A DNA stretch of 43,466 nucleotides. Origin: Escherichia phage fBC-Eco01. Shown piece by piece: positions 25,321-40,551 of the stretch (the stretch's first letter is position 1; each line of letters begins with the position of its first letter). The notes below the pieces were generated by a model that did not search any database, was not told the DNA's origin, and was given only the letters and a program-made list of their open reading frames with translations. The position numbers and the translations under genes were made by a program. The stretch lies in sequence record OM272052.1; one strand, 5' to 3'.

Positions 25321-25345
25321 AGCCCTCATAAGAGGGCTTTACTTT
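25321..25345. terminator. intrinsic terminator between convergent tail fibre and replication genes
   Basis: AGCCCTC-ATAA-GAGGGCT hairpin with T-rich flanks. Confidence 0.5.
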
Positions 25346-25469
25346 ACCTTAGACACCTATCAAGCCGTAGCGCGCCAAGCACCCCGCCAACGCGCACGAT
25401 AAAACCCCTACGTTTTGTTTCAGCCCATGTGAAAATACCGGTTTCAGGGCCGTATGATACCTTGCTCAT
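25344..25469 (-). pseudogene. HNH homing endonuclease N-terminal remnant (41 codons)
   Basis: ORF MSKVSYGPETGIFTW... overlapping helicase stop (ATGA); N-terminal motif matches the two intact HNH genes but the HNH core is absent. Confidence 0.4.
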
Positions 25470-26896
25470 TTCTTACTCCTACGTTTCATATACTCAAGGA
25501 GGATATCCTGCACCTGTTTTTTCTCGTCTGTGCGTGAAGTGACAACAGAATCCAACGTATCTTTAGCAATAATCTTGTAGATAAAAACAGGCCGATTATA
25601 CCCCGATTGCTTTTGCCGTACTGGCCCTATGCGCTCTACCACCTGTAAATAGTGTTCGAGGTTCCACCCCTGACTGAAAAACGCCATATGATGGCCGCCG
25701 TCTTGTAGCGATATGCCGTGGCCGGCTGACGCGGGGTGGACGCATAAGATTTCAATTTCACCACGGTTCCACGCTTCCATCTGCTTATTACCCTTCGCAC
25801 CTTTGGCAAACGCCTGTGCTTGTGGGAATCGCTTAAGGATACGCTCCAGTTCGTGCTTAAACTGATAGGCCACCAGTAACGGCGCGCCCTGTAGCTCCTC
25901 AACAATGGACTCAAGCGCATCAAGTTTCGTGTCGTGCACTTTCTCCCAGTCTTTCGATGCCTCGCCGTCCGGCCCGGACACATACACGGCACCGGATGCA
26001 ATCTGCAAACACTTCGACGTCTTCGCTGCGGCGTTAGCGGCTTCAACTTCTCCGCTCTCCAGTTCTGCGAATAGCTTCTCCTCCATATCTATGTACGCCT
26101 GACGCGCTTTCTTCGGCAGGTCGATTTCGACCGGTACAATAATCGGCGCTTCGCAACCGAACCACTCGGCGGCGTCAATCGTGAGACTAATGTCCTTCAT
26201 CTTCTGATGAATTTCATTATCCGCACCCGGGCGGGCGTGGTACTCGCGCGCCATAGCCGATTTGCCTTTCTGTACCGAGTTAAACCAGCGGTCGGTGAAT
26301 GCTGTGTACGAAGAACCGAGGCGCTCACCCGCGTCGATAAACCAGTTCTGGCCCCACAAGTCCTTGAGGCCGTTTGGTGATGGTGTACCTGTCAGGTTGA
26401 TGAAACGCTTAACCTTACCGAACGCCACTTTACTAAGTGCCTTTGCCCTCTTGCTACCACCTGAACGGCTGCGGAACGATTTCAGCTTCGTGCTCTCATC
26501 AGCAACGATAACCGTAAAAGGCCAGTCGTCTTTGCCGTAGTAGTCAATAAGCCACTCGATAACTTCGTAGTTCGCGCACACCACGTTAGCGTCCGACTCC
26601 AGCGCCGCGATGCGGCGCTTCTCTGAACCGGTCGCATCTACGACGCGCAGACACGGGAAACCCCACTTAGTTTGTTCTGCGGGCCACGTACCGGAGGCAA
26701 CGCGCAACGGGGCGAGTATCAGCACTCGGTCGTCGTCCGTAAGTTGACCGTTGCGGAACAGGCGGTTAAGAACCCACATTGTCGACGAGGTCTTGCCGCC
26801 GCCCATACCGCACCAGATATTGCAACGTGGGTGCTGTAGCATGAACGAAGTCATGAGCTTCTGGTACTCTCGACGGATAAATTTAGACATGTTCAA
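25466..26896 (-). CDS. superfamily II DNA helicase (SNF2/DEAD-like)
   Basis: 476 aa; Walker A GMGGGKT, DExx-like VADEST motif. Confidence 0.8.
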   Translation of the reverse strand: MNMSKFIRREYQKLMTSFMLQHPRCNIWCGMGGGKTSSTMWVLNRLFRNGQLTDDDRVLILAPLRVASGTWPAEQTKWGFPCLRVVDATGSEKRRIAALESDANVVCANYEVIEWLIDYYGKDDWPFTVIVADESTKLKSFRSRSGGSKRAKALSKVAFGKVKRFINLTGTPSPNGLKDLWGQNWFIDAGERLGSSYTAFTDRWFNSVQKGKSAMAREYHARPGADNEIHQKMKDISLTIDAAEWFGCEAPIIVPVEIDLPKKARQAYIDMEEKLFAELESGEVEAANAAAKTSKCLQIASGAVYVSGPDGEASKDWEKVHDTKLDALESIVEELQGAPLLVAYQFKHELERILKRFPQAQAFAKGAKGNKQMEAWNRGEIEILCVHPASAGHGISLQDGGHHMAFFSQGWNLEHYLQVVERIGPVRQKQSGYNRPVFIYKIIAKDTLDSVVTSRTDEKKQVQDILLEYMKRRSKK

Positions 26897-27087
26897 TCCT
26901 TAACGTAGAGTACCAGCTCTTTACGCCCGAACGCGGTAACGTTGCCTGTTACATCTTCGATAACCAGTTTACCGTTTGACTCGACGAACACAGTATCAAC
27001 GGCAACAGGCTGGCGGGTCTTAACGTTGAAAATCATGTCGCCAGGTACGATGTCACGCGCGGGTTTGCGGTCATATTCGTGTTTCAT
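26893..27087 (-). CDS. hypothetical protein
   Basis: 64 aa; ATGA overlap with helicase; RBS AAGGA. Confidence 0.5.
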   Translation of the reverse strand: MKHEYDRKPARDIVPGDMIFNVKTRQPVAVDTVFVESNGKLVIEDVTGNVTAFGRKELVLYVKD

Positions 27088-27117
27088 TTCTCAATTCCTT
27101 ATATTGTTGGTGTAGGA

Positions 27118-27402
27118 CTAACTATAATAGTTTGCTATTATGTCGTCAACCTGTTTGAACGAGCCGACGACAAAAACATTTGCACCACGTTTACGCATCC
27201 GTTCGTGTTCGCGTAACTGGTGTGGGTCTGGCTTCGTGTTTTCGTCTTTCTTGACCTCAACGAACCAGATGATGCCGCCGGGTAGAAGCACTAAGAGGTC
27301 GGGAGCGCCCACTCTATTTTCGTACGACAATTTGCGTACGAGGCCCCCCAGGGCCTCGAATCGCTCTTTTGCGTATTTCTGAATCTTGCCCTCCGGGGTC
27401 AT
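27118..27402 (-). CDS. VRR-NUC domain nuclease
   Basis: 94 aa; motif PDLLVLLPGGIIWFVEVKK characteristic of VRR-NUC (PD-(D/E)XK-type) proteins. Confidence 0.65.
   Translation of the reverse strand: MTPEGKIQKYAKERFEALGGLVRKLSYENRVGAPDLLVLLPGGIIWFVEVKKDENTKPDPHQLREHERMRKRGANVFVVGSFKQVDDIIANYYS
27121..27149 (-). promoter_or_regulatory. sigma70 consensus-like promoter (TTGACG-N17-TATAGT, minus-directed)
   Basis: minus-strand reading TTGACGACATAATAGCAAACTATTATAGT; overlaps the 3' end of the VRR-NUC gene. Confidence 0.5.
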
Positions 27403-27551
27403 GAGCGCAGAATCCAGGTGATGAAAGCCCCGCCGAGAACGGCAACACCAACAAACTTAAAGAACAGGCCATAATAGAACATCGCAGCTATTCCCGCACT
27501 GAGTAACAGTGCGAGCATGGTTACTATCGTCCAAAATACAAACATTGTCAT
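27399..27551 (-). CDS. small membrane protein (about 50 aa, two predicted TM helices)
   Basis: internal ATG 27551 chosen (ATGA overlap with upstream ORF); strongly hydrophobic. Confidence 0.4.
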   Translation of the reverse strand: MTMFVFWTIVTMLALLLSAGIAAMFYYGLFFKFVGVAVLGGAFITWILRS

Positions 27552-27739
27552 AACAACGGCTCCGCATCTGGGTTTCGCAGGAAGTACGCTTGATAGATGT
27601 CGTGTTCTGAATAGTAAACACCTTTGTGCGTACACCCGGTGCAAGCATCGCTAAAGAACCCATCGCCCATTACCATGATAAATTCCCACTCCGGCATATC
27701 TACTAACGCTTTGGTGTTGCTAAAACATTCTTCTTTCAT
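27548..27739 (-). CDS. hypothetical protein
   Basis: ATG 27739 with RBS AGAGGGG at 8 nt; 63 aa. Confidence 0.4.
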   Translation of the reverse strand: MKEECFSNTKALVDMPEWEFIMVMGDGFFSDACTGCTHKGVYYSEHDIYQAYFLRNPDAEPLL

Positions 27740-27825
27740 AATATGCACCCCTCTCGTTTTGTATGCTCAATCCCGCAGCGCGGACAGATTCGGCAGTCTT
27801 CTTCGTATAACCAGTAAATTTTCAT
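27736..27825 (-). CDS. small Cys-rich peptide (29 aa, CxxC...C zinc-ribbon-like)
   Basis: MKIYWLYEEDCRICPRCG...; stop overlaps next ATG. Confidence 0.3.
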   Translation of the reverse strand: MKIYWLYEEDCRICPRCGIEHTKREGCIL

Positions 27826-27953
27826 TCCAGCACCCACAGATAAATTGCGATGAACATACCTAATACGGCTACCATCATGCCGTATTGGCCCTCGTGACAA
27901 TAGACACCGGCGGCGAATCCCGCCAGTACCGCGATAATCAGTTTACTTAGCAT
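27822..27953 (-). CDS. small hydrophobic peptide (43 aa)
   Basis: ATG 27953 overlapping the DNA polymerase 3' end; two hydrophobic stretches. Confidence 0.3.
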   Translation of the reverse strand: MLSKLIIAVLAGFAAGVYCHEGQYGMMVAVLGMFIAIYLWVLE

Positions 27954-30141
27954 AACGCTTCATCTCCGCGCCTTCCGCTACAAGAGGGAACCCCTCCGCC
28001 CACTCTGGCAACGCACACATTAATTTTTCCAGTTCAGGCACCGTGTAATCCGGCGTATCTGGAGTTTCACATACCAGTTCATCGTGTACCGAAAGCACGA
28101 TGGGATACCCGCCACCCTCAACATTAATCATCGCATACGCAAGTAAATCACGGCACAGCGCCTGAACAATGTTTTCGCAGGCCTTGCCGCCGTGTGTGTA
28201 CAGGGTAGTCCATTGACGGGTTAACTGGTTTTCGCCCTGATACTTGATTCGCACATTCGTATTTACCCGCCCGTCTTCGTCTGTTTCCTTTGTCACACTA
28301 ACGCCGATTCCCGGATACGAGAGGATGCGACCCGACGGCAACTCCATACACAACCACCAGCCAGGAACCTTCCTGCCCGACGAATCAAATTCTACGGTAC
28401 GCCATATGCGGATAGCCCTTTCACCATTCCGGCGCAAGTGTGCTCCCGCCCAAAATTCACGACCAGGATTTCTTACCGCGGCTAAAATACCGTCTTTGAG
28501 GTCGCGCCAGAACGCTACTGTTTCCGGGTGTGACTCGCGCCACATACGCTTGATTGCATCGCAGGTGCGCCACACTTTCTTGTCCAGAATATACGACGGT
28601 CGGTCGTCCTTTTCACCTGGATGCGGGGGGCGCTTGGCTTCCTGGATGCGCGCCCACTCGTACCCGCGTGCAGTGGCCGACCAGATATGGTCCGGGAATG
28701 TACCGTCCATTGTTTTAGCCATCTCAATAAGGTCGAGGCCTAAGTTTTTGGCGAACGTAACGAATGCTCCGACGCCCCCCTCGTAGCCGAGGCCCAGTTC
28801 GCATGCTTTGCCTATCTGTCTGATTTCCTTAAAGTTTTTCTTAATATCGTCAGGGTCCATGCCAAACATCTTACCTGCGGTTACGCAATAAATATCCAGT
28901 CCGGCACGGAACGTATCGAGCGCGGTTTCTTCTCCTGCTAACCACGCTAACCCACGACCTTCGACGTTAGAGTAATCAGCTACGACAAACTTGTGCCCGG
29001 CTTCCGGTATGATGCAGCTACGGACCGTCGATGCCGTCAGCTTGGCTACGTCAAATCGGCGGTGAGCACGACCCTTAAGTAACGCTGAAATGCCTTTATC
29101 CAGTTCATCATCGTGATAGTAACCGCGCGCCAGGTTCTGCGGCTGAAAGCCTTTACCCGCCCATCGCAGAGTGCGTTTTGCCCCGCCGTACTGCAAGCAA
29201 CCACGACGGCGGTCGTCCGACGAGCGACCCAGCAGCAGCGGGTTATATTTCGTCGATGCTGTAGACGCGGCCCCGAGGCGCATTTCGATAATTGTGCGCG
29301 CGTCGTCAGGTAAATCATCGTCCGCCAACAAGTCATTCAGCGTTGACTTCTGCGCGTTGTGGATGCGGTGCGCAGGGGCGAGTTCACGCAAAATAGGCAG
29401 AAAGTCCTTACCGGTAAGTGAACCGCCGTATTTGCGTTGGGCTTCTTCCTGTAACTGTGCTTTGTGTTTCTCCACGGCTTCAATCGCGGCTTCCGCCAGT
29501 GCGACGTCAACCTTAAACCCGCGGTCGTTGATTAACTGGTCCAGTTCCAGTACACGGTCCTCAAACTCGGAGTTACCCCAACGCGGCAGCTTATGGAAGA
29601 CTTCACGCATTGCGGTGATGTCGCTCACGGCGTACTTGATGAACAGCGCCCACTCGTCAGGGTGTGTTTCTGCGGTGTAGCGGCGGATTTTGTAGTTCTT
29701 CGGTGTAGGTTTAGAGAAACGCTGAATCAGCGCCTTGCCGCGTTTATCTTTCGCATTGTCAGCGGACACGCCCAGCACTTCGCACAACGCATCAAGTGAC
29801 CCCGGCAGCGCGTGACGAAACGCCCAAATCATTGTATCAATGGTGTTGCTTACCGGAATATCAAAGTCCCAACAGTGCTTCATGATGAGCCTGTCGAACA
29901 TTAAAAAGTTATGGCCTACGATTTTCATACGTCCGCGCATAACATTACGGAGTGCAACGCGGAGGCTTATCGGCATTACTGGTTCGGAAGTGCAATCCCA
30001 TACTTCTACAGGACCGTCATCAACGGCATATGTACAAATTATAACCTCGGTCGTTGGATGCTCCGCGTACGCGTACGACCCGACTTTCTTTAAGTCTGCT
30101 TCGGAGAATGTCTCAGTATCCAGGTACAATAAACTAGTCAT
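27943..30141 (-). CDS. DNA polymerase, family A (Pol I-like) with 3'-5' exonuclease domain
   Basis: 732 aa; exonuclease motif LYLDTETFS; polymerase motifs DYSNVEGR, RQIGKACELGLGYEGG and VHDELV. Confidence 0.9.
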   Translation of the reverse strand: MTSLLYLDTETFSEADLKKVGSYAYAEHPTTEVIICTYAVDDGPVEVWDCTSEPVMPISLRVALRNVMRGRMKIVGHNFLMFDRLIMKHCWDFDIPVSNTIDTMIWAFRHALPGSLDALCEVLGVSADNAKDKRGKALIQRFSKPTPKNYKIRRYTAETHPDEWALFIKYAVSDITAMREVFHKLPRWGNSEFEDRVLELDQLINDRGFKVDVALAEAAIEAVEKHKAQLQEEAQRKYGGSLTGKDFLPILRELAPAHRIHNAQKSTLNDLLADDDLPDDARTIIEMRLGAASTASTKYNPLLLGRSSDDRRRGCLQYGGAKRTLRWAGKGFQPQNLARGYYHDDELDKGISALLKGRAHRRFDVAKLTASTVRSCIIPEAGHKFVVADYSNVEGRGLAWLAGEETALDTFRAGLDIYCVTAGKMFGMDPDDIKKNFKEIRQIGKACELGLGYEGGVGAFVTFAKNLGLDLIEMAKTMDGTFPDHIWSATARGYEWARIQEAKRPPHPGEKDDRPSYILDKKVWRTCDAIKRMWRESHPETVAFWRDLKDGILAAVRNPGREFWAGAHLRRNGERAIRIWRTVEFDSSGRKVPGWWLCMELPSGRILSYPGIGVSVTKETDEDGRVNTNVRIKYQGENQLTRQWTTLYTHGGKACENIVQALCRDLLAYAMINVEGGGYPIVLSVHDELVCETPDTPDYTVPELEKLMCALPEWAEGFPLVAEGAEMKRYAK

Positions 30142-30607
30142 GGCAATAAAATTCCTTGTGCAGTTTTTCTCTTAATTTCTTTACGGCGCTTTCTGCTTCT
30201 TCAAGAGTTCCGTAGCTACCAGCGTTATAGCTTTTGTAGTTAAAATGCACACGCCCGTAAAATCGGTTGCCGTTTTTAACCACTCCCTTAACTCCGGTTC
30301 TAGCTCCCTTATTTTTAGCGTTTCGCACATTATCAGCGGTTGTTGCTTTCCTTAGGTTAGAAATCCTATTGTCTAACCTGTCACGGTTTATATGGTCAAG
30401 AGGCCCATCGGGCCATTCACCGTACTCGAAAAACCAAGCAAGCCTGTGGGCCATGTAATATCTACCCATATAAGGTATGCGCCAGTATCCACTACTATTG
30501 ATGCATCCAGCGATGTCTCCGGGTTTTCCTCGTCTGTACGTAGGTTGTATCCATGTGAATACCCCTGTCTCTCGGTCGTAGCTTAGAAAATCTTTTATAT
30601 GTTCCAT
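30134..30607 (-). CDS. HNH homing endonuclease with AP2-like DNA-binding domain
   Basis: ATG 30607 with RBS GGAG; motifs AHRLAW, HINRDRLDNRISNLR; C-terminal GVKGV...NRFYGRV AP2-like segment. Confidence 0.7.
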   Translation of the reverse strand: MEHIKDFLSYDRETGVFTWIQPTYRRGKPGDIAGCINSSGYWRIPYMGRYYMAHRLAWFFEYGEWPDGPLDHINRDRLDNRISNLRKATTADNVRNAKNKGARTGVKGVVKNGNRFYGRVHFNYKSYNAGSYGTLEEAESAVKKLREKLHKEFYCHD

Positions 30608-30623
30608 TCTGACTCCGGTAAAA

Positions 30624-30641
30624 AGGCCCAATGATGGGCCT
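30624..30641 (-). terminator. intrinsic terminator (minus-directed) between SSB-like gene and HNH gene
   Basis: AGGCCCA-ATGA-TGGGCCT hairpin followed on the minus strand by TTTTACC. Confidence 0.5.
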
Positions 30642-30661
30642 TAGTTAAATTGATTCAGATA

Positions 30662-31288
30662 TTAGCGGCGGCGACGTTCGCGGCGCGGAGCTTCATCTTC
30701 TTCGTCATCTTCCAGGTCGTCGACGCTTGCCGCGACTTTAGAACCGCCAAACGCTTTACCTTCGCCGACGTATTTAATCGCCAGCAGATTAACACCGAGA
30801 ACTTTGTATTTCTGGCTGAACCAGATTTCAATGCTTACGTTAGCGACGCAGCCGCTGTAAACCTGTTCACCTTCAATCTGCTCGCCGTCTACATTGAAGT
30901 CCTGCTCTACCTGAGTCTCGCCTTTTTTAGAGGTTACAATCAGTGGCTGTTTCTGAGCTTTCGCTTTGAAGTAGAAGCCTTCCGGGAAGTCTTCAAACGG
31001 ATTGTCGCGCTCGGCAATGTCCTTAATCGCGCATTTATCCATGTGCTTACCTTCGCCGTAGTTGGACTTCATCCATTTCTCGGCGGCGGCTGCACCTAAC
31101 GCTTCTTCAACTACAGCGTAAACAGTGTCGTAGAGCGCATCGATTTGAGCATGGTCAGACGGCAGGATGATAGTCGCGCTGTACTGGCCTTTAGTGATTG
31201 AGCCATCATCGTTTTCACGGTCTTTTTCACGTTCGAATACGTTAACCCAAGCAGTGTTTACTTTACGCAGATTTAATTTCAGTCCCAT
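30662..31288 (-). CDS. DUF2815-like putative ssDNA-binding protein
   Basis: 208 aa; strongly acidic C-terminal tail DDLEDDEEDE as in SSBs; genomic context next to DNA polymerase and DUF2800 nuclease. Confidence 0.55.
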   Translation of the reverse strand: MGLKLNLRKVNTAWVNVFEREKDRENDDGSITKGQYSATIILPSDHAQIDALYDTVYAVVEEALGAAAAEKWMKSNYGEGKHMDKCAIKDIAERDNPFEDFPEGFYFKAKAQKQPLIVTSKKGETQVEQDFNVDGEQIEGEQVYSGCVANVSIEIWFSQKYKVLGVNLLAIKYVGEGKAFGGSKVAASVDDLEDDEEDEAPRRERRRR

Positions 31289-31341
31289 TTGATTTCTCGC
31301 TTTTCAGTTTACTCCGGGGAGCTGCCCGGCCAGTGATTAGA

Positions 31342-31370
31342 ACTATAATAGCTAACTATTCAGGTGTCAA
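31342..31370 (-). promoter_or_regulatory. sigma70 consensus promoter (TTGACA-N17-TATAGT, minus-directed)
   Basis: minus-strand reading TTGACACCTGAATAGTTAGCTATTATAGT upstream of the SSB-like gene. Confidence 0.5.
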
Positions 31371-31603
31371 CCCTTCCAGCCAGTTATTTTCTCAACTATG
31401 GTTATGTATACGTCAGGCCACTTCAAATTACGCACCCACTCAACTTCTTTGGCATACACCAACTCCTCTAGTTCTATTTTCCTGCACTTAAATGCGGTAT
31501 ACACGAAAAACGGAAGAAGCATTATGGCCAGCGGCAGTATTAGCGCGTGATAAGTTAAAAACGCCACAAAACCACCAATTACTCTGAACATTTTACGAAT
31601 CAT
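31367..31603 (-). CDS. small membrane protein
   Basis: ATG 31603 with RBS GAGGAGG at 7 nt and ATGA overlap; hydrophobic N-terminal half. Confidence 0.4.
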   Translation of the reverse strand: MIRKMFRVIGGFVAFLTYHALILPLAIMLLPFFVYTAFKCRKIELEELVYAKEVEWVRNLKWPDVYITIVEKITGWKG

Positions 31604-32841
31604 TCTAAATCCTCCTCTGTTGCCTGATTCCACTCAGGACGTTTGTCGTCTGCCGTTGCGACACATGGTGCGCCCGGCTTACGGGTAATGAAGTCTTTCA
31701 GTTCTTCTTCCGGTATAATTTTAACCGCTTCGGTAGGCGTCATGATAACTTCTTTAGTCAGCTTGTCGCCGTAGAGTTCTGCCACTTTCTCCGCGTCTTT
31801 CCACGCACGATTACCCGGCCTACCTTCAACCAGCTTGTACCCCGGAACTTTCTTACCGGAATGCAGCGAGGCAGCCATAGCTTTTTCAACCTTTTCGATG
31901 TGCTGGCGCAACAACGGCAACTTCTCATACTCAGCTACGAGTTGCTCCGGCGTCAGTTCCAGCGCAAAGTCGTCCTCCAGTTCTTCCGCCAGCACCGCGT
32001 TAACGGTTTTTGTACGCGCTGCGCACTGTTCAGAGAACCGGCACCACTGACAACCATCGACCGACGGCTTAAAGTCCGACGCTTTCAGGTTCTTCTTGCC
32101 GCGGGAATACGCATCTAACGCTAACAGTGCCCGTTTCCGCGCAAACTTAGCGAACAGTTCCAGACCTTCAACCGAGATGTCCCACTCCGACGCACCACCA
32201 GCGTACGGCTGGAAGATGACCAGACGAACCGTTGTTACGTTATAGCGTCGCTTGAGTCTGCGATAAACACCGAGAGCATAGAGCATAAGCTGCTTGTTCT
32301 CTTTCGCTTCGACACGATGTCGTCCTGTTTTCAGGTCGCCGATAATTAGCATGTGCTCTTCGGTGTTCGCCAGTTCCTGGACGGCAACAAGGTCAGCGGT
32401 TCCGAACGTCTCGACACCTTCGTAACCAGGATGCAACACCTCAGTAAGATTGACACGCATTTCCAGCTTAGCGTAAGTCGCTACATCGATAATCGCTTTG
32501 CAGTAGTCTGTGTACTTGCGAACCTGCTCAATCATATCCGCCGTAATCAGTACTGCGCCTTTCATCGGACTGATTAGCGCCTTAATCTGGCCTTTACCCT
32601 CATCCAGCACGTAGGCACCGACTTCACGTTCTAACGGCAACGCAGTGCCTTTGATGTACTGGTTTAAGTGCATCTCAGCTATGGTGTGCATGGCTGTTCC
32701 TAATACCGCGGCTTTACCTGACGTGTTAGGAATATCTTTTTCACAGGCCAGTGATGCCGCGCAACTTAGCCAACGTTTACTACTGGAAGGTGATAACAAT
32801 GAATGTTCGTCGTTACTCCCGCTTCTGCCCTTAATTTTCAT
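31600..32841 (-). CDS. DUF2800-like PD-(D/E)XK nuclease with Cas4-like Cys cluster
   Basis: 413 aa; N-terminal Cys (RWLSCAASLACEK) plus C-terminal CQWCRFSEQC arrangement typical of Cas4/RecB-type Fe-S nucleases. Confidence 0.65.
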   Translation of the reverse strand: MKIKGRSGSNDEHSLLSPSSSKRWLSCAASLACEKDIPNTSGKAAVLGTAMHTIAEMHLNQYIKGTALPLEREVGAYVLDEGKGQIKALISPMKGAVLITADMIEQVRKYTDYCKAIIDVATYAKLEMRVNLTEVLHPGYEGVETFGTADLVAVQELANTEEHMLIIGDLKTGRHRVEAKENKQLMLYALGVYRRLKRRYNVTTVRLVIFQPYAGGASEWDISVEGLELFAKFARKRALLALDAYSRGKKNLKASDFKPSVDGCQWCRFSEQCAARTKTVNAVLAEELEDDFALELTPEQLVAEYEKLPLLRQHIEKVEKAMAASLHSGKKVPGYKLVEGRPGNRAWKDAEKVAELYGDKLTKEVIMTPTEAVKIIPEEELKDFITRKPGAPCVATADDKRPEWNQATEEDLE

Positions 32842-32913
32842 TTAATAGCCCCGTGATTTTTATGGAATCCTAACTCTTTTTCTGCATTTTTACGCGCCAC
32901 AACGGCGTCGTCT

Positions 32914-33351
32914 TTATTCTCGAAATATCCAAGACCTATGAACGAGCTTTCTACTCTTATATATATATGCCCGCCACAACTTACGAGTTTTGCACCAGCT
33001 TACACCAGTAACGCCGCTGGTGTTGTTAGATGCTAAAGACATATTCTTGTGATTTCCGGCGCTACTCACCTTCCGCAGATTGGTAATTCGATTGTTTCTC
33101 CTGTCGTGGTCAATATGGTCTATTTGCTCTCCGGGCTTTAGTAAATCATCTGGGTTACAAAGGTCCCATATAACACGATGCGCTTTACGCACAACGCCGA
33201 GCACCTTAACTTGAGTGTAGCCATGAACGTCGTTGGACCCCGCCTCCTGTCCAGCCTTAACTTTGTCGGAAGGTGATATCTTCCAATACAATTTCCCGGT
33301 ATCAGGGTCGTAGTCAAAAACTTCATGCCAATTCATACCCTGTTCTCCCAC
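32914..33351 (-). CDS. HNH homing endonuclease
   Basis: 145 aa; motifs YDPDTGKLYW, AHRVIW, IDHIDHDRRNNRITNLR. Confidence 0.7.
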   Translation of the reverse strand: MGEQGMNWHEVFDYDPDTGKLYWKISPSDKVKAGQEAGSNDVHGYTQVKVLGVVRKAHRVIWDLCNPDDLLKPGEQIDHIDHDRRNNRITNLRKVSSAGNHKNMSLASNNTSGVTGVSWCKTRKLWRAYIYKSRKLVHRSWIFRE

Positions 33352-33605
33352 TGATCAATTAAATGTCGTGTCTGGTGATGACAGTGCATAGCCCACCCAT
33401 ACATCGACTCGAAGACATAAAAGTCAGGCTTGGCAAAAGTCGTGCGCTTAATCTGCGACACATGACGGCCTATATCTTTAGGCCGTGGTACTTTACCTAA
33501 GTACGCCATCTCTTCCATCTGGCGCGCACCGGATGGTGCACGCAATAGCCATAGCGCCTCTGTGTCATCCCGCCTGTCTACGGCGCGGTAGAGTTGGTAA
33601 ATCAT
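33333..33605 (-). CDS. hypothetical protein
   Basis: 90 aa; His/Cys cluster HCHHQTRH. Confidence 0.45.
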   Translation of the reverse strand: MIYQLYRAVDRRDDTEALWLLRAPSGARQMEEMAYLGKVPRPKDIGRHVSQIKRTTFAKPDFYVFESMYGWAMHCHHQTRHLIDQWENRV

Positions 33606-33648
33606 AAATCCGACCCTCAGTTAAAGCGGCCCGAAGGCCGCGAGATAG

Positions 33649-34146
33649 TTATTCTTCTTCGAAATACTTGTTCTTGATTGCCGTCAGGCGTTCCAGGTAC
33701 TCGGCCAGGTCTTCGTCCTTAATCGCGGCAATCTTCATCTTCTTACCGGTGAACTCTTCCAGCAGTTCATCAGACTCGTCACACGCGGCATCGCTCGGGC
33801 CTTCGTTAATTGCATCGTCGATAGCCTGAATCTGGTCACGCAGAGATTGGTAATCTACTTCTTTTTTCTCTTCTTCCGGCTCTGGCGTCGGTTCCTCTGC
33901 TTTAGCTTTACGCGTCTTGCGTTTCGGCTTCTCTTCCTCCGCAGGTTTAGTGTCAACGACGTCTTCACCTTCAACCGTGATTTCTTTTGCTTCTTCGGCG
34001 CACTCGCCCGCCGCTTTTTTGGTATACACTACTGTCTCTACTTCCAGCGGCGCATCGGCATGAACAACTTGTTTTGCACTGTTCGCAGCAATCAGTTCAT
34101 GCGCAACTACGAAACGTTCCAGTAATTTTAAGAATTGGTCTAACAT
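33649..34146 (-). CDS. hypothetical acidic protein with central KR-rich patch
   Basis: 165 aa; RBS GAGGAGA at 7 nt; first gene behind strong promoter. Confidence 0.5.
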   Translation of the reverse strand: MLDQFLKLLERFVVAHELIAANSAKQVVHADAPLEVETVVYTKKAAGECAEEAKEITVEGEDVVDTKPAEEEKPKRKTRKAKAEEPTPEPEEEKKEVDYQSLRDQIQAIDDAINEGPSDAACDESDELLEEFTGKKMKIAAIKDEDLAEYLERLTAIKNKYFEEE

Positions 34147-34177
34147 TTGTTTCTCTCCTCTCGTTTTGTATGGACTA

Positions 34178-34206
34178 ACTATAATAGCGAACTACTCACA
34201 TGTCAA
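34178..34206 (-). promoter_or_regulatory. sigma70 consensus promoter (TTGACA-N17-TATAGT, minus-directed)
   Basis: minus-strand reading TTGACATGTGAGTAGTTCGCTATTATAGT in the divergent region next to the HTH gene. Confidence 0.5.
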
Positions 34207-34270
34207 TGGGCTTTTCTAAAATAATTAATATGGTACTATTCACATATCAACTGACTAAGGAGTAATTGAC

Positions 34271-34486
34271 ATGCAACCATCTGAACTAGGCATCCGTGTA
34301 GAACAACGCCGCAAAGAACTCGGCATCTCCCAGCGCCGTCTGGCTGTCCTGACTGGCGTTTCCCAGGGCGCGATTAACCAACTGGCACTTGGGGTAACTC
34401 AGGACGTCCGCCCGGTGACGCTGTTTAAACTGGCGGAAGTGCTGGAAGTAGACGCCAAATGGCTGGCGTTTGGTGAAGGGGCTTAA
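34271..34486 (+). CDS. XRE-family helix-turn-helix transcriptional regulator (Cro/CI-like)
   Basis: 71 aa; HTH signature ISQRRLAVLTGVSQGAINQLA; RBS AAGGAG; own terminator. Confidence 0.7.
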   Translation: MQPSELGIRVEQRRKELGISQRRLAVLTGVSQGAINQLALGVTQDVRPVTLFKLAEVLEVDAKWLAFGEGA

Positions 34487-34502
34487 CGCCCCTTTCTTTT
34501 TA
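34477..34502 (+). terminator. intrinsic terminator after HTH gene
   Basis: AGGGGC-TTAAC-GCCCCT hairpin followed by TTCTTTTT. Confidence 0.55.
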
Positions 34503-34503
34503 C

Positions 34504-36711
34504 CTATTCCAAATCCTCTTCTGTCACTATCAGCATCTCATTCGGTTCGTATATTGTCTTCGGCCTTAACCTATCTCCTATTCTTTCGGGTATACGATAT
34601 GTTCTCGGTACTACTTCGCCGTTAGCATCGCAGCCGAGCATTAGTTCACCATCTTTCAGCATTTTATCAAGATGGGTGTTAGTCACAGAAAAGTCACCGG
34701 AACGGGCCACTATCTGCTGCTGAGTAAAACCGCGACCTGTGTCATCTGACTGTTGCAGGTCTTCCAGTGCTGAAAGTATTGACTCCTTCCTTACTTCATC
34801 CCTGCCGCGTTTAACCTCTTCCTTTACTTTTTGTTTACCTTCGTTATTCAGCCCTTCTTCCCGCTCTTTCTCCTCGTCAGTTTTGAACGGCTCGAAGCCC
34901 CACGGCATCAGCACAAGCGCCTTGTGCGGCTCCGGCAGGTCGAGGTTTACTATTGTGCCGTATTCCTCTGTGCCGCCCAGGAACTCAGCCGCACGGTACT
35001 CTTTCGGCGGTGGTGCTTCACGGAACTGTACAGACTCAAGTACCATGCCAACCGTTTTCTGTTGAGGCCCGTGCTTAAATTTCGAGTGGTATACGTTTAT
35101 CTGACGGTCGGTTGCACGTTCTATTGTCAGTTCCACATCGACACCCGCATACAGCGCCCCGCTGCCACGGGCTTTCTTTCCGCCCTTCGGTGTATGGTGG
35201 ACGACGCCCACCGCGGCTTTAGTTGCGTCACGTACTTCTTTCAGGATGGCGATAACTTTACCCATGCCGATTGCCGTTGATGAACTGTTCTCGTCGAACT
35301 TATCAATCGTCAGGGCCAGTGTCTGGTTAAGGGTGTCGAACGCAACCATCCCAATTGGCTCGTCACCCGCAGTTTCTCGCATTAGCTTAATCAGGCTTTT
35401 CAGTTTGCCAACTTCGCCCATATCGATGACATGTACATAATCTTTACCTTCCTCGCCGTATTTAGCCGCGAGTGCATCAATACGGGTGCGTGTGGCAGCA
35501 CCGCCCTCACCGTCAATATAGAAATGGTGGCAACGCTGTGTATCAGCGCCTGCAAACCGGTACCCTGCGGCGCTCAGGTACATCATACCCAGCGTATAGA
35601 ATGATTTATATGTGCCGGATTCCCCGACGATGTCCCAGATGCAATCCGACGGCATGTACCCTTCAACGACGAAATCAGCCTTTACCGGTTCAGGTAACTC
35701 GTCATCGTCTTCAAGGTCTTCCAGTGTACAAGTTACAGGCTCCTCGTTCTCTGTGCGGTGCAGTTCTTCAATCTCTTCATCCGGTAAATCAGGCAGAGCC
35801 GCACGAATGCTGTTAATACTGATAGGTTGCTTGTCTACGTTAAGCTCGTCTGGGAGGCCACACATGCGCAGGGCCAAATGTTGCCGGCGGTTAAGCTCGG
35901 TGCAAGCGCCGTTGTTTGTGTGCTGACACACGAAGCGCACTTCTTTACCGTCAAGCATGATGCTGGTGGAGCCTTTTCCGGTGTGCAGGTGCTCGTTAGG
36001 GCAAGGCACTTCGTACCCACGCCCGGAAGATAAAGCGTCAAGACCAAGCTCGGCTTCGCAGAAATGCGCTATATCAGCGTTAAGCCCATGCTCATCGGCG
36101 ACAAGGGTCTTAGCTTCACGTTTACGCAGCCCCATTTCTTCGGCTTTCTTGATGTACCGCTCGGCACGGATAACACGCCCTTCTGTAACCGTTATCTTCG
36201 ACTCTTTATGCGGCAGGTAGATAAGGCGGTTGCCATCTTCTGTGCAGTGGTCGCGCAATGCTTCGTCTATTCCTAACTCTGCACAAATAGCACGTTGCAC
36301 CATCCACGCATCGTTAGAGTTAAACGGAGTACGAGCCGGAACCAGAACGCGGAATGCGTAATCACCGTTTTTACACGCGTGCTGATGCGATGCCGTTGTG
36401 TGCAGAATATTGAAGAACGGCGCGTTCTTGAATTTGCGGGTAAGGTCGCGGTACTGAGTACGGTTGAGATGGTCGAAGTCGAACTTAACCACACTGTCTT
36501 CCAGGATAGCGTTTTTACGGCGACCACCAACGGGGGCAATAGCTTTCTGCTTAATCTTGGCGGCGTCGTACTCTTCCTTAGTCCATGACGGGTCCACGGA
36601 TAAACGCTTCGATGTATCGCAGACATACTCTACGAACTGCTCCAGCGGCATTTCACGTGCTACAGGGTTTTTATCGAATGTGTTACGCAGCGTTGCAAAA
36701 ACAATATTCAT
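34504..36711 (-). CDS. DNA primase-helicase (phage-type primase plus P-loop NTPase)
   Basis: 735 aa; Zn-binding Cys/His cluster CPNEHLHTGKG...FVCQHTNNGAC; Walker A VGESGTYKS. Confidence 0.75.
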   Translation of the reverse strand: MNIVFATLRNTFDKNPVAREMPLEQFVEYVCDTSKRLSVDPSWTKEEYDAAKIKQKAIAPVGGRRKNAILEDSVVKFDFDHLNRTQYRDLTRKFKNAPFFNILHTTASHQHACKNGDYAFRVLVPARTPFNSNDAWMVQRAICAELGIDEALRDHCTEDGNRLIYLPHKESKITVTEGRVIRAERYIKKAEEMGLRKREAKTLVADEHGLNADIAHFCEAELGLDALSSGRGYEVPCPNEHLHTGKGSTSIMLDGKEVRFVCQHTNNGACTELNRRQHLALRMCGLPDELNVDKQPISINSIRAALPDLPDEEIEELHRTENEEPVTCTLEDLEDDDELPEPVKADFVVEGYMPSDCIWDIVGESGTYKSFYTLGMMYLSAAGYRFAGADTQRCHHFYIDGEGGAATRTRIDALAAKYGEEGKDYVHVIDMGEVGKLKSLIKLMRETAGDEPIGMVAFDTLNQTLALTIDKFDENSSSTAIGMGKVIAILKEVRDATKAAVGVVHHTPKGGKKARGSGALYAGVDVELTIERATDRQINVYHSKFKHGPQQKTVGMVLESVQFREAPPPKEYRAAEFLGGTEEYGTIVNLDLPEPHKALVLMPWGFEPFKTDEEKEREEGLNNEGKQKVKEEVKRGRDEVRKESILSALEDLQQSDDTGRGFTQQQIVARSGDFSVTNTHLDKMLKDGELMLGCDANGEVVPRTYRIPERIGDRLRPKTIYEPNEMLIVTEEDLE

Positions 36712-36836
36712 TTCTTTTTCTCCGCACGTTCTAAGGCTTCCTGCATACGGCGCATTGCGCGGTTCATCTTTACCGGTGCGAAGAAATCAGCGCCGTGTTT
36801 CTGGCGGCGTAGCTGTGGAACTATTAACTTTGTCAT
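36708..36836 (-). CDS. small basic protein (42 aa)
   Basis: ATG with RBS AAGGA at 7 nt; stop overlaps primase ATG. Confidence 0.3.
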   Translation of the reverse strand: MTKLIVPQLRRQKHGADFFAPVKMNRAMRRMQEALERAEKKK

Positions 36837-36876
36837 TGTATAATCCTTATGCTTACTTTGATGATTTGTACTTTAA

Positions 36877-36908
36877 CCCCAACGTTCTGGCGTTGGGGTT
36901 TCTTTTTA
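36877..36908 (+). terminator. plus-oriented intrinsic terminator-like hairpin
   Basis: CCCCAACG-TTCTGG-CGTTGGGG followed by TTTCTTTTT on the + strand, inside a - strand operon. Confidence 0.4.
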
Positions 36909-37196
36909 CCGGTTTGCTAACTCACCCAGCAAATTTTTATACTCTTCAAAATAATCCGCAACCAAATCATCGCCGAAATAGAAGTCGATATACTCGAGAT
37001 TATCTCTTACGTTAAGCGACGCCGACATGGTGCTTAGCTGGCGTAAGCTAATTAGCTTCATTTCTGTTTCTACGCAGAAAGGCCGGTAGGTATCAAGGTG
37101 GCAAGAGATGTTGAAGCATAGGGCGAACTCTCCAACCACGGAGTGAACCATATACACTTCGTTTTCTGCTTTATTGTGGAAAATTACACCTTTCAT
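36906..37196 (-). CDS. hypothetical protein
   Basis: 96 aa; ATGA overlap with upstream HTH gene. Confidence 0.5.
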   Translation of the reverse strand: MKGVIFHNKAENEVYMVHSVVGEFALCFNISCHLDTYRPFCVETEMKLISLRQLSTMSASLNVRDNLEYIDFYFGDDLVADYFEEYKNLLGELANR

Positions 37197-37375
37197 TTCA
37201 CATTCTCCTTAATCCACGCTTCAACTTTATTACGGTCAAATGTTCCTGGTAAACGGCGACCCATAACTTTAATACAGCAGTCAGGGAATTTACCACTGCG
37301 CAACCAGTTATTAATTGTCTGGCGTGTCACCCCAATACGCTCAGCTACTTCATTCTGTGTCATGTAATGTTGCAT
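37193..37375 (-). CDS. helix-turn-helix DNA-binding protein (AlpA/Xis-like)
   Basis: ATG 37375 with RBS AGGAGA at 8 nt; HTH segment TQNEVAERIGVTRQTINNWLRSGKFP. Confidence 0.55.
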   Translation of the reverse strand: MQHYMTQNEVAERIGVTRQTINNWLRSGKFPDCCIKVMGRRLPGTFDRNKVEAWIKENVK

Positions 37376-37396: not shown

Positions 37397-37425
37397 GGTG
37401 GAGCTGAGTATAGGATAGCGGGGAT
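37397..37425 (-). promoter_or_regulatory. candidate promoter for leftward replication operon (TTGCTT-N17-TATACT)
   Basis: minus-strand reading TTGCTTTTACATCCCCGCTATCCTATACT, about 20 nt upstream of the HTH gene. Confidence 0.45.
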
Positions 37426-37472
37426 GTAAAAGCAACCAATCCCTGCTATATTTAATCTTTACAAAAAAGTTA

Positions 37473-37502
37473 TTGAAAGTTCTTGACACATGTTTGTATA
37501 AT
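37473..37502 (+). promoter_or_regulatory. strong sigma70-like promoter (TTGAAA-N18-TATAAT)
   Basis: perfect -10 TATAAT, good -35; no ORF downstream before terminator at 37702. Confidence 0.5.
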
Positions 37503-37508
37503 GGTTTT

Positions 37509-37729
37509 GGGACTTGTATATATTACGGAGTTGACGAACCCTCCCCGAGGGATTCGTCAACCCCTCCCAGACAACTGAGATGCTTGCCTTGGGGTTTAAG
37601 GATAAGTGTATCTAAATCTCATTTAAAGAAGTAACCCGCTGAAATATCTACTGTTTCTTAATGTGCCGTAGATTCGCAACCGTAAAAATGTAACGATTAT
37701 TGGGCAGGCTTAAGGCCTGCCCTTTAGTT
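37509..37729 (+). ncRNA. candidate ~220-nt non-coding RNA
   Basis: bounded by TTGAAA-N18-TATAAT promoter and GGGCAGGC-TTAAG-GCCTGCCC terminator; 5' region holds a 14/15-bp hairpin; no RBS-led ORF. Confidence 0.3.
37702..37729 (+). terminator. intrinsic terminator
   Basis: 8-bp GC-rich stem GGGCAGGC/GCCTGCCC followed by TTTAGTT. Confidence 0.55.
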
Positions 37730-37794
37730 ACCAAGTAATAAGAATAAAGGCACAACCTTCCCTAAAGAATCACAACGGCAACGTAACTAATCTC

Positions 37795-37823
37795 TTGCAC
37801 ACCCCAACATAATAGGATACTAT
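37795..37823 (+). promoter_or_regulatory. conserved promoter element copy D (TTGCAC-N17-TACTAT, plus-directed)
   Basis: TTGCACACCCCAACATAATAGGATACTATTCAC upstream of the rightward small-gene cluster. Confidence 0.5.
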
Positions 37824-37857
37824 TCACGTATCGGGACGAGACAGAGGAGTGAGGGTT

Positions 37858-38043
37858 GTGTTTAAGAAGGGTCAGTTGGCGAAAACTAAACGCGGCGGAC
37901 AGTACGTAATAGTTACCCAGGACGAGGATGAATTTAGTATCGCTGTAGACGTATGGGGGCTTGTACGAAAGAAACATGGTTACGCTTTCCGCGATAATTT
38001 AAAACTCATCGGCAACAATTTTAAATTCAAAGGGGCGAAGTGA
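37858..38043 (+). CDS. hypothetical protein
   Basis: GTG 37858 with RBS GAGGAG at 8 nt; 61 aa. Confidence 0.5.
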   Translation: MFKKGQLAKTKRGGQYVIVTQDEDEFSIAVDVWGLVRKKHGYAFRDNLKLIGNNFKFKGAK

Positions 38044-38282
38044 TGCAAATCATAATTACGGATAACACAGTTGCCTACGAAAAAGGTGGCGACAATACTC
38101 TGGAAAGAATAGGCGTAAATATAGGTGACGTTTTTGATGTGCTTGGTACTGTATCGGGCGGCTGGTGGATTAAGGTTGGATGCAACAAAGTGCCAGTAAC
38201 TAAGGCCGAAGCGGAAATATACACAACGGCATCGAATCATGATGCTCGTGTCGACGACTCTGAGGGAGGTTGCCGTGAATAA
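38043..38282 (+). CDS. hypothetical protein
   Basis: ATG overlapping upstream stop; 79 aa. Confidence 0.5.
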   Translation: MQIIITDNTVAYEKGGDNTLERIGVNIGDVFDVLGTVSGGWWIKVGCNKVPVTKAEAEIYTTASNHDARVDDSEGGCRE

Positions 38283-38315
38283 TATTTTAACCGTTTATGT
38301 GGTACGGGGGTTGGT

Positions 38316-38459
38316 ATGAGAGAAGCATTTGAACGGTGGGCTGTCGTCGAGGGTCTGCCGGTTAACAAAGGTTCGAAGAAAGAGTACCTGAACGTTAAGA
38401 CGCGTCTCGCGTGGCGGGCGTGGAAAGCCGGTGTGCAATATGCGATGAATACGAGGTGA
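38316..38459 (+). CDS. hypothetical small protein (47 aa)
   Basis: ATG with RBS GGGGG at 5 nt; Trp- and Lys-rich. Confidence 0.35.
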   Translation: MREAFERWAVVEGLPVNKGSKKEYLNVKTRLAWRAWKAGVQYAMNTR

Positions 38460-38462
38460 TTT

Positions 38463-38648
38463 ATGGGTGAGTGGATTAAGTGTAGTGAGCGGATGCCGGA
38501 GCCTTATGAATACGTTCTTGTAACTGATTGTTTTGTTGGCTGTGAGGTTATGCGTGTTAATTCAGATGGCTACTGGGGGCCCGCAAAGAGTTTATATCAC
38601 GGTGATATAACGCACTGGATGCCGTTACCTGAGCCGCCGGAGGTGTGA
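38463..38648 (+). CDS. DUF551-like protein
   Basis: 61 aa ending ...GDITHWMPLPEPPEV, the C-terminal signature I associate with phage DUF551 proteins. Confidence 0.5.
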   Translation: MGEWIKCSERMPEPYEYVLVTDCFVGCEVMRVNSDGYWGPAKSLYHGDITHWMPLPEPPEV

Positions 38649-38782
38649 TGTTCAATAGTTTGGGATTTTACTGAGTGACTTACGCTGCTACACAGCAGCG
38701 TACAACTTTAGATTAGTGTCGTCAAAAAGCGACACTTTCACCAAACGCAACAATCGAAGCGACTATTGCAGGAGATGCAACA

Positions 38783-38953
38783 ATGAAACTGAATGACATC
38801 GTAACCTGGACCGGTAGAAACGGAGAAAAGCGATTCGGGCTTATTGTTGCGTCAGACGGCAGCAAGTACTGCGTTATGCGATGGCGTCAGTGGGCACGAC
38901 GCCCGAGGTACTACTGGATTCGTGGCGAACGATTATCTTTAAAACACCAATAA
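38783..38953 (+). CDS. hypothetical small protein (56 aa)
   Basis: ATG with RBS AGGAGA at 8 nt; preceded by two short hairpins. Confidence 0.4.
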   Translation: MKLNDIVTWTGRNGEKRFGLIVASDGSKYCVMRWRQWARRPRYYWIRGERLSLKHQ

Positions 38954-38960
38954 AATTTAC

Positions 38961-38989
38961 TTGCACGCTGGGATAGAATAGACTACTAT
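38961..38989 (+). promoter_or_regulatory. promoter element variant (TTGCAC-N17-TACTAT, plus-directed)
   Basis: TTGCACGCTGGGATAGAATAGACTACTATTCATC; same -35/-10 and downstream TTCA as copies A-D, divergent spacer. Confidence 0.5.
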
Positions 38990-39020
38990 TCATCTACACA
39001 AACGAGAGGAGAGACAGAAG

Positions 39021-39161
39021 ATGGGTTGGTACAGTAGCTGGACATTAGGCGAGCTGGTTGATGCTTACGAAATAATGGGTAGCACTTCGGTGTGCGACGG
39101 CGACACTAAATCGCTGCTAGTCGGGGTGGGTGAGAAAAGGGGTGAAGCTGATGAGTAACAA
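39021..39161 (+). CDS. hypothetical small protein (46 aa)
   Basis: ATG with RBS GAGGAGA at 8 nt, directly downstream of promoter element. Confidence 0.3.
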
Positions 39162-39630
39162 AAACGAAGTATTCGAGTACCTGATTGACCAGTTACGGCA
39201 GCAGGTAAATAACAACCAGTGCGAAGACCTGGCGCATAAGGTGCGGTCACTTAAGAACCAGTTACATGATGCGTCGGCGCGGATTAAGGAGTTGCATAAG
39301 GCGTTGGCTATAGCTACAGGTGACGTAGGCGCTTATATAGCAGCAGAGCAATCTGGTTGCCGTAAGGAAGATACTCAGTACAACGCCTGGAGGCCGCATT
39401 ATGGCGCACGACAACCTGTGCCGGATGGGACTATGGTATTTATCCGGTATCGCAACGGGGAGGAGCCGAAACACAGTGTAGCAGCAGAAAAGCGGTCGTG
39501 GATTTGGGATGGAACATACGCAGACATAGTGGAATACAAGATTGACACACAGGAATGTGAACATGACTATCGTTTGGTTCTGTGGTGTAGCGACTTACAG
39601 CAGTGCTCTAAATGCGGGGTGATCAAATGA
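39151..39630 (+). CDS. hypothetical protein with C-terminal CEHDY...CxKCG motif
   Basis: ATG 39151 with RBS AAGGGG; 159 aa; C-terminal Cys/His cluster shared with ORF 42353..42592. Confidence 0.5.
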   Translation: MSNKNEVFEYLIDQLRQQVNNNQCEDLAHKVRSLKNQLHDASARIKELHKALAIATGDVGAYIAAEQSGCRKEDTQYNAWRPHYGARQPVPDGTMVFIRYRNGEEPKHSVAAEKRSWIWDGTYADIVEYKIDTQECEHDYRLVLWCSDLQQCSKCGVIK

Positions 39631-39830
39631 CCAGCATATTATTTATCTGGGTATTGTCCGCAGGCCAGATGCAACTAGCGGCATCAGAAACGTTTTATTC
39701 GATGGAGGCGTGCCAGTCAGCGGCACGCGCCGCAGAGAACGCGCACTTCCTGTTTCAGGGTGACAAGCCCAACGATTCAGAGGTACGCGCTATCTGCTCA
39801 CCTAAGCGACTTGGTAAACAGGAGAAGTGA
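39627..39830 (+). CDS. hypothetical protein with N-terminal signal-peptide-like segment
   Basis: ATGA overlap with upstream stop; MTSILFIWVLSAGQMQLAAS hydrophobic leader. Confidence 0.45.
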   Translation: MTSILFIWVLSAGQMQLAASETFYSMEACQSAARAAENAHFLFQGDKPNDSEVRAICSPKRLGKQEK

Positions 39831-39832
39831 TT

Positions 39833-40520: not shown

Positions 40521-40551
40521 ACCGTTATTAAGATAATTCCTAACCGTGCTA

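Follow-up and report, generated by a model that had tools for sequence, protein, structure and literature searches.

A palindromic candidate operator for a Cro-like repressor on sigma70-type promoters of the Kagunavirus phage fBC-Eco01

The Cro protein of phage 434 and the C2 and Cro proteins of phage P22 are small XRE-type helix-turn-helix (HTH) proteins, and their sites, placed over sigma70 core promoters, are 14-18 bp palindromes in which the outer half-sites are conserved and the centre varies. The operators of 434 are 14 bp long and those of P22 are 18 bp (7-N4-7), and their central bases are not contacted by the protein. In the lambdoid layout, the regulator gene is divergent from the operator-bearing promoter, and a weaker site lies on its own promoter. 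The LexA/SOS boxes and the PLtetO/lacO designs also place one palindrome on each strong or near-consensus promoter, at a variable position relative to the core. The elements of lambda Q and of Pseudomonas AlpA lie within promoters, that of lambda Q in the spacer. Here we describe the palindrome AATAG-N4-CTATT in Escherichia phage fBC-Eco01 (Kagunavirus, Guernseyvirinae), the complete genome of which (OM272052.1; 43,466 nucleotides) is the window analysed. Three promoter-like sites on the minus strand of its replication module, P27, P31 and P34, carry the palindrome between the -35 and -10 hexamers, and the phage encodes the Cro-like protein Gp52 as well as the HTH_17/AlpA-like protein Gp56. 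Judged by its pattern of conservation and its placement, the palindrome is most likely bound by a Cro-like repressor that the phage itself encodes.

Gp52 is a small XRE-type HTH protein with the length of 434 Cro (71 residues), its gene has the divergent lambdoid layout, and the predicted fBC-Eco01 operators have the dimensions and the position over core promoters that are found in 434 and P22. The arrangement differs from the lambdoid systems in that neither a CI partner nor an integrase is present among the fBC-Eco01 gene products, and thus the phage is obligately lytic. Furthermore, single sites are distributed over about ten promoters on both strands instead of forming tripartite OR and OL regions. 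The half-site of the predicted operator is AATAG, whereas the 434 operators read ACAA-N6-TTGT. The role proposed for Gp52 is that of Cro at PL and PR when lambdoid phages grow lytically, carried over to a set of about ten dispersed promoters. Unlike in the LexA/SOS system, the candidate regulator is encoded by the phage, its predicted regulon consists of the phage's own promoters, and no inducing signal is known.

P27, P31 and P34 read TTGAC(A/G)-N17-TATAGT on the minus strand, exactly as and where the original prediction, which was made from the letters of the genome, had placed them (Table 1). When up to one mismatch is allowed, TTGACR-N17-TATAGT has three matches against 0.35 expected, and the composite TTGAC-N7-TAG-N4-CTATTATAGT has three matches against 0.00 in 100 shuffles. 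The spacer palindrome proposed to be common to the three sites is perfect in P27 and P31; the copy in P34 contains one mismatch (AGTAG), at a position where nearly all relatives have AATAG. Two of the sites had been said to overlap the 3' ends of upstream genes, and these are P27 and P31. P27 lies wholly inside the final 10 codons of gp40c (27118-27402; VRR-NUC), the TAG stop of which follows directly after TATAGT, and the TGA stop of gp47c (31367-31369) is located inside the -35 hexamer TTGACA of P31.

The replication module extends on the minus strand from 25344 to 37375, and the three sites look like promoters for the host sigma70 RNA polymerase internal to this leftward operon. P34 is predicted to serve gp51c through gp47c, including an exonuclease. 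The predicted target of P31 is gp46c, which encodes a T7 gp2.5-like single-stranded-DNA-binding protein (SSB), and the predicted unit of P27 contains gp39c, the helicase gene gp38c and gp37c, and ends at terminator T13. P31 and the intrinsic terminator T15 bracket gp46c as a predicted single-gene unit, and the predicted units are sensible, SSB being needed in large amounts. The predicted 5' untranslated region downstream of P31 (~31300-31335, minus strand) contains a conserved hairpin, CCGGG-CAGCUC-CCCGG, just upstream of gp46c. This leader hairpin could stabilise the mRNA or be a site of translational autoregulation by SSB. A scan of the entire window against Rfam gave zero matches.

A position weight matrix (PWM) scan of both strands of the genome assigned 16.1 bits to P34, 16.1 bits to P31 and 14.8 bits to P27, which places all three within the top four. 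The fourth is a plus-strand site at 41754-41782 (P417, 14.8 bits), and all four carry the palindrome. The top-four sites are located 25-47 nt upstream of co-oriented start codons; the distance from the predicted transcription start is 25 nt from P34 to gp51c, 47 nt from P31 to gp46c and 27 nt from P27 to the ATG of gp39c. The -35 hexamers are near TTGACA, TATAGT keeps the A at -11 and the T at -7, and the spacer is 17 bp at all three sites and 17 or 18 bp among relatives.

Conservation was analysed in about 35-39 aligned loci from relatives, which comprise Kagunavirus contigs from IMG/VR together with fFiEco02 and Jersey and are not independent samples; many Kagunavirus genomes are 87-91% identical to fBC-Eco01 in the replication region. 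Deviation is the percentage of bases departing from the majority base, pooled over P27, P31 and P34. It amounts to 1.8% in the -35 hexamer and 1.2% in the remainder of the -10 hexamer, compared with 8-13% in the flanks. At P31, where many relatives have a non-homologous gene upstream, conservation starts exactly at TTGACA. At P27, the third codon positions of gp40c deviate by 0.7% within the -35, half-sites and -10, compared with 19.3% in the 60 nt upstream, and the linker and palindrome centre vary at all three codon positions. The GenBank record of Jersey independently annotates the orthologs of P27 and P31 as sigma70-like promoters (29238-29266 and 32925-32953), and phage AG11 has a promoter feature under the region matching P31. 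The proposal that the sites are sigma70-type promoters is thus supported computationally by PWM rank, gene spacing, conservation and the Jersey annotation, the activity itself being predicted. The promoters themselves are ordinary: the orthologs of P27 and P31 were already annotated, and the repeated motif was already published for fBC-Eco01.

No 5-N-5 palindrome in the genome is more over-represented than AATAG-N4-CTATT, which has seven perfect copies; the runner-up has two, and the shuffle maximum is three. Allowing one mismatch increases the number to 11 (seven perfect and four imperfect copies) against 1.1-1.2 expected, a count reached in 0 of 100 and 0 of 200 shuffles. All copies with no or one mismatch sit in promoter-like positions. 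The left half-site deviates by 0.7% and the right half-site by 0.4%, compared with 12.6% for the 4-nt centre and 12.6% for the linker from the -35, which also varies in length (4 or 5 nt). The extended element is about 18 bp long, TGAATAG-N4-CTATTAT, with the general form (T/A)(G/T)AATAG-N4-CTATT(A/C)(T/A). RNA polymerase recognises no element at the left half-site (-25..-21), which is nevertheless nearly invariant, and therefore another constraint must act there.

The same inverted repeat had been reported in a second promoter family, and the palindrome does recur there, with copies at 3919, 6063, 15131, 37811 and 38977 (PA-PE). They belong to the 32-bp PHIRE motif TGAATAGTAyCCTATTATrTTGGGGTGyGCAA, which has no -35 in that reading direction. 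The opposite strand of the motif reads TTGC(A/G)(C/G)-N17-TACTAT(TCA), with exactly five copies against 0.00 expected, and all five are located 26-42 nt upstream of co-oriented starts that have a GAGG-type ribosome-binding site. A promoter without a -35 firing in the TGAATAG direction was considered and dropped, since each of the five copies reads TTGNNN-N17-TACTAT in the opposite direction and, in the re-read orientation, the -35 of the PE ortholog in Jersey is a perfect TTGACA. Judged by these hexamers, the second family is also sigma70-type and fires opposite to the TGAATAG reading; it is predicted to drive the minus-strand islands of the late region and rightward early genes. The 18-bp element is inverted relative to transcription in this family, and TACTAT lies inside the right half-site. 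The structural operons that surround the islands extend on the plus strand from 51 to 25259 and are broken by gp04c, gp07c-08c and gp24c-28c, and the early and lysis genes are on the plus strand from 37849 to 43404.

The published annotation of fBC-Eco01 is consistent with the window in all 78 gene coordinates of its supplementary tables, as well as in the seven 'PP' motifs and the terminators (PMC9825357). The PHIRE motif tgAATAGTa-ccTATTat-T was named there 'phage RNAP promoters' (RNAP, RNA polymerase) PP1-PP7 (PMC9825357). PP4 overlaps P27, and PP1-3 and PP5-7 correspond to PA-PC, O2 (the site on the gp52 promoter), PD and PE. The host promoters HP1-HP6 of that study are on the forward strand only, and P27, P31 and P34 are not among them (Supplementary Table S2 of PMC9825357). 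Its reading of the motif as the promoter of a phage-encoded RNA polymerase draws on the PHIRE retrieval, and is hardly credible: no RNA polymerase is among the 78 predicted gene products or is annotated in relatives, and the motif sits within canonical -35/-10 frames, in either of two orientations. The published regulatory annotation of fBC-Eco01 needs correction, because the motif is assigned to an RNA polymerase that the phage does not encode. The published motif and the GenBank promoters of Jersey and AG11 are the same or orthologous sequences, but the palindrome is not noted there as an operator. We found no description of the palindrome as an operator or of a Cro-type regulon in Guernseyvirinae in the open-access literature searched, which also contained nothing relevant on experimental promoter work with phage MB78 or Jersey-like phages or on any operator in the group.

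Table 1. Coordinates of promoters, predicted operators and associated features in the fBC-Eco01 genome
Feature	Coordinates	Strand	Sequence or core elements	Predicted operator	Context
P27	27121-27149	minus	TTGACGACATAATAGCAAACTATTATAGT; TTGACG-N17-TATAGT	27126-27139, AATAGCAAACTATT (minus strand)	
P31	31342-31370	minus	TTGACACCTGAATAGTTAGCTATTATAGT; TTGACA-N17-TATAGT	31347-31360	
P34	34178-34206	minus	TTGACATGTGAGTAGTTCGCTATTATAGT; TTGACA-N17-TATAGT	O1, 34183-34196	gp51c/gp52 divergent intergenic region
PA	3917-3948	minus	TTGCAG-N17-TACTAT(TCA)	3919-3932	28 nt upstream of gp04c ATG
PB	6061-6092	minus	TTGCGC-N17-TACTAT(TCA)	6063-6076	28 nt upstream of gp08c ATG
PC	15129-15160	minus	TTGCGC-N17-TACTAT(TCA)	15131-15144	42 nt upstream of gp28c ATG
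PD	37795-37826	plus	TTGCAC-N17-TACTAT(TCA)	37811-37824	26 nt upstream of gp57 GTG
PE	38961-38992	plus	TTGCAC-N17-TACTAT(TCA)	38977-38990	32 nt upstream of gp62 ATG
P417	41749-41782	plus	TTGACT-N17-TATATT	ACTAGTTGACTATT (41749-41762), over -35; CTATTAT half-site at -10	predicted to drive gp71 onwards
HP1	6154-6187 (promoter 6159-6187)	plus	TTGACT-N17-TAAGCT	operator-like AATAGTTGACTTTT, one mismatch, over -35	
O2	34227-34240	plus		degenerate, AATATGGTACTATT, one mismatch	overlaps TACTAT -10 (34234-39) of weak gp52 promoter
gp52	34271-34486	plus			71-aa XRE/HTH_3 protein; best PDB match 434 Cro; proposed repressor
gp56c	37193-37375	minus			HTH_17/excisionase-like protein; alternative candidate binder
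T15	30613-30651	minus	GGCCCA-TCAT-TGGGCC and T run		intrinsic terminator directly after gp46c; terminator table of PMC9825357

The palindrome occupies positions -25..-12 in P27, P31 and P34, -19..-6 in the second family and -40..-27 in P417, and it occurs in both orientations. Because it is found in three registers and both orientations and always overlaps the core promoter, it behaves like a repressor operator and not like the site of a positioned activator. Its 14-18 bp, the conserved half-sites and the freer centre are as expected for a Cro/CI-type operator. A promoter of the MerR-activated type was rejected, since it needs a spacer of 19-20 bp with a centred palindrome, and here the spacers are 17-18 bp and the palindrome position is variable. 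By reasoning, we also rejected sigma54, extended -10 and host ArgR, CRP and LexA boxes, which do not fit in spacing or sequence.

The placement of the palindrome also bears on Gp56, for which it could be a loading or activation site if Gp56 were an antiterminator or activator similar to AlpA or lambda Q that gives read-through of terminators. Gp56 is a DNA-binding HTH protein by family, its homolog is among only four early genes in phage K1B4, and the Gp56 proteins of Kagunavirus and Jersey, both of which have the same operator, share about 80% identity. There are 23 predicted terminators in the genome, and the element of P27, P31 and P34 lies in the spacer, as does that of lambda Q. However, relative to the -10 the element takes up three registers and both orientations, which is unsuited to a factor docking on RNA polymerase in a fixed geometry, as Q and AlpA do, the second family has the -10 hexamer itself covered by the element, and near-consensus promoters require no activator. 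Gp56 matches the Pfam family HTH_17, Phage_AlpA is not among its matches, and the phage 186 Apl paper describes excisionase-type proteins as usually binding direct repeats. Moreover, the Cornellvirus Shemara has similar promoter palindromes and no Gp56 homolog; there is no other HTH_17 protein among the 19 small Shemara proteins scanned, of which only the XRE protein shows an HTH. We consider Gp56 an unlikely binder. Of the two HTH proteins named in the original prediction, the XRE protein Gp52 is thus favoured and the AlpA/excisionase-like Gp56 disfavoured.

The pattern could also have arisen with no trans-acting factor, by descent or copying of a promoter cassette or from a spacer preferred by RNA polymerase. 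The near-identity of PA to PD over 32 bp suggests duplication, and the right half-site doubles as a part of the -10 (CTAT/TATAGT and TA/CTAT). The left half-site, though not an RNA polymerase element, deviates by 0.7% against 12.6% for the adjacent bases, and it is kept even against the coding constraint of gp40c. The symmetry of the palindrome is preserved, and a symmetric change is found in another genus. On this evidence, we regard an origin with no trans-acting factor as improbable. The invariant half-sites, the variable centre and the presence of the element on at least ten promoters support the earlier suggestion that one protein coordinates both promoter classes, although binding by this protein is predicted.

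Gp52 matches 434 Cro over nearly its full length (E = 4e-6); further matches are the 434 repressor and P22 C2. The palindrome has the operator geometry of 434 and P22, which we count in favour of Gp52. The gp52 gene is transcribed divergently from P34, and both O1 and O2 are located within the 124-bp region upstream of it, so that the HTH_3 gene adjoins operators and its own promoter carries a degenerate site (O2). O2 is 44 bp from O1, centre to centre, and is invariant in 39 relatives. Homologs of Gp52 are present in 555 phage records, including members of Kagunavirus, Jerseyvirus and Cornellvirus, and its recognition helix is identical in all Kagunavirus sequences examined but one (G->S). 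Weighing these features against the contrary points given below, we estimate the likelihood that Gp52 is the binder of the palindrome as somewhat better than even.

A 38-nt segment of gp52 (34434-34471) matches, at 94.7% identity, a sequence annotated as clustered regularly interspaced short palindromic repeats (CRISPR) in E. coli 2017.09.02CC (NZ_AP025214.2, two places), which suggests that natural spacers target gp52. When complete E. coli genomes were searched for a prophage from which the gp52 region could derive, a CRISPR spacer was the sole match.

Jerseyvirus has the Kagunavirus motif in the form TAATAG-N4-CTATTA. No copy of AATAG-N4-CTATT is present in Shemara, which infects Salmonella, as does Jersey. 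Shemara contains instead eight copies of TATTA-N6-TAATA, a motif picked after viewing the data, against 1.1 expected. Seven of the eight are intergenic and upstream of genes (6872, 8263, 14981, 27877, 38486, 39102 and 42218), and several overlap TAATAT -10 hexamers located 17 bp from TTGACA or TTGCAA. Neither genus motif (AATAG-N4-CTATT or TATTA-N6-TAATA) occurs above chance in the other genus. Operator specificity thus seems to have changed symmetrically in Cornellvirus as compared with Kagunavirus and Jerseyvirus. Among the 2.9 million viral contigs of IMG/VR, Kagunavirus-like contigs were the only ones found to contain the composite of promoter and operator. The palindrome could be bound by a transcription factor or nucleoid protein of the host, as the promoters depend on host RNA polymerase and AT-rich palindromes are common targets of host factors. 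Since Jerseyvirus and Cornellvirus both grow on Salmonella and use different palindromes, and the composite is confined to Kagunavirus-like contigs, a host factor is very unlikely. The equivalent of PA in Jersey (5569-5595, minus strand) carries a different 20-bp palindrome, TGGTATAT-CTAT-ATATACCA, which may point to a second regulator, or to an island that came from elsewhere and brought its own control.

Several points weigh against repression by Gp52. Kagunavirus (SQGAINQ) and Jerseyvirus (SQSLITH) share the operator despite differing recognition helices, and the helices of Jerseyvirus and Cornellvirus (TQSAISH) are similar while the operators differ. Gp52 is only about 50% identical between Kagunavirus and Jersey, so that Gp56, with its higher identity, fits a conserved operator better. 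The Shemara palindrome was chosen post hoc, and its copy near the XRE gene is degenerate. The sole RNA-seq study on a relative, phage K1B4, is at the gene level and too coarse to show a shut-off. Finally, if every rightward promoter were repressed, the source of the late transcripts is unexplained.

The lack of clean covariation between the Gp52 recognition helix and the operator also leaves room for another phage protein, such as the NinH/Fis-like Gp77 or a small early protein, to bind the palindrome, the role of Gp52 then being another or a more restricted one. All three genera encode a NinH-like protein. Nevertheless, its matches to Pfam NinH are under the curated threshold of that family, there is no positional link between the operators and the gene of an alternative binder, and it is gp52 that is arranged in the classical way, divergent from its neighbour and separated from it by two operators. 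Such a binder has, in our estimate, a low probability.

Further operator-bearing promoters and neighbouring elements extend the set. The P417 element is strictly conserved among relatives, and HP1, with one mismatch in its operator-like sequence, is a possible eleventh member. PA, PB, PC and PD hardly differ over 32 bp, and this extends to the linker ACCCCAAYAT, which is required by no known element. Such similarity suggests that a promoter cassette was recently duplicated or spread by gene conversion, or that the other strand has a second function at the late operon starts, which are located directly behind bidirectional terminators.

Two promoter-like sequences without the palindrome are arranged back-to-back: a strong sigma70-like site at 37473-37502 on the plus strand (TTGAAA-N18-TATAAT, 14.7 bits) and a candidate gp56c promoter at 37407-37435 on the minus strand. 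The 227 nt downstream of the former contain no annotated open reading frame, have a predicted minimum free energy of -72.3 kcal/mol (z = -4.16) and end in a terminator-like hairpin at 37702-37722. A put-like antiterminator RNA was considered for this segment, which folds well, but was rejected because its first ~165 nt are common to one related locus only; it is therefore a mosaic segment. The segment within 37407-37735 may encode a small RNA specific to the strain, or may be a leader or an origin region.

We slightly favour a model in which host-type promoters share a palindromic operator and are repressed by a Gp52 dimer. That the promoters are active, that a protein binds the palindrome, that this protein is Gp52 and that it represses are predictions of this model from the sequences, their enrichment and conservation, the positions relative to genes and the family of Gp52. 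Upon infection, host RNA polymerase would fire all of these promoters. P34 would restart transcription for gp51c through gp47c, P31 and T15 would make gp46c a strongly expressed single-gene unit, and P27 would boost gp39c and the helicase. Gp52 would be expressed from a weak promoter that has no recognisable -35, and its dimer would bind the operators and block RNA polymerase at P27, P31, P34 and at least seven other promoters (PA-PE, P417 and the gp52 promoter). The build-up of Gp52 would turn down early and replication transcription and that of the minus-strand islands inside the late operons, and Gp52 would limit its own synthesis through the imperfect, weaker O2. The repression of PA, PB and PC would also remove transcription running head-on into the late operons. 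More tentatively, and with somewhat less than even confidence, we propose that in this strictly lytic siphophage a single repressor of the 434/P22 type, a Cro that lacks a CI partner, may control almost all host-type promoters (at least ten, on both strands, including those of the antisense islands), and that its operator specificity may have been switched symmetrically between sister genera.

Kagunavirus and Jerseyvirus phages rank among those most frequently isolated for therapy and biocontrol of E. coli and Salmonella. The map of about 11 host-type promoters, with their orientations, shared operator and candidate repressor, replaces the assignment as "phage RNA polymerase promoters". It reveals no new kind of mechanism, and its value is in the correction of the annotation and in a testable regulatory map. 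If confirmed, it would explain the turn-down of early, replication and late-antisense transcription, and would supply strong defined promoters and a small repressor for the engineering of Guernseyvirinae phages. If the control of almost all host-type promoters by a single Cro-type repressor is true, it would constitute a compact, naturally orthogonal set of repressor, operator and promoters, and a simple early-shut-off clock for Guernseyvirinae.

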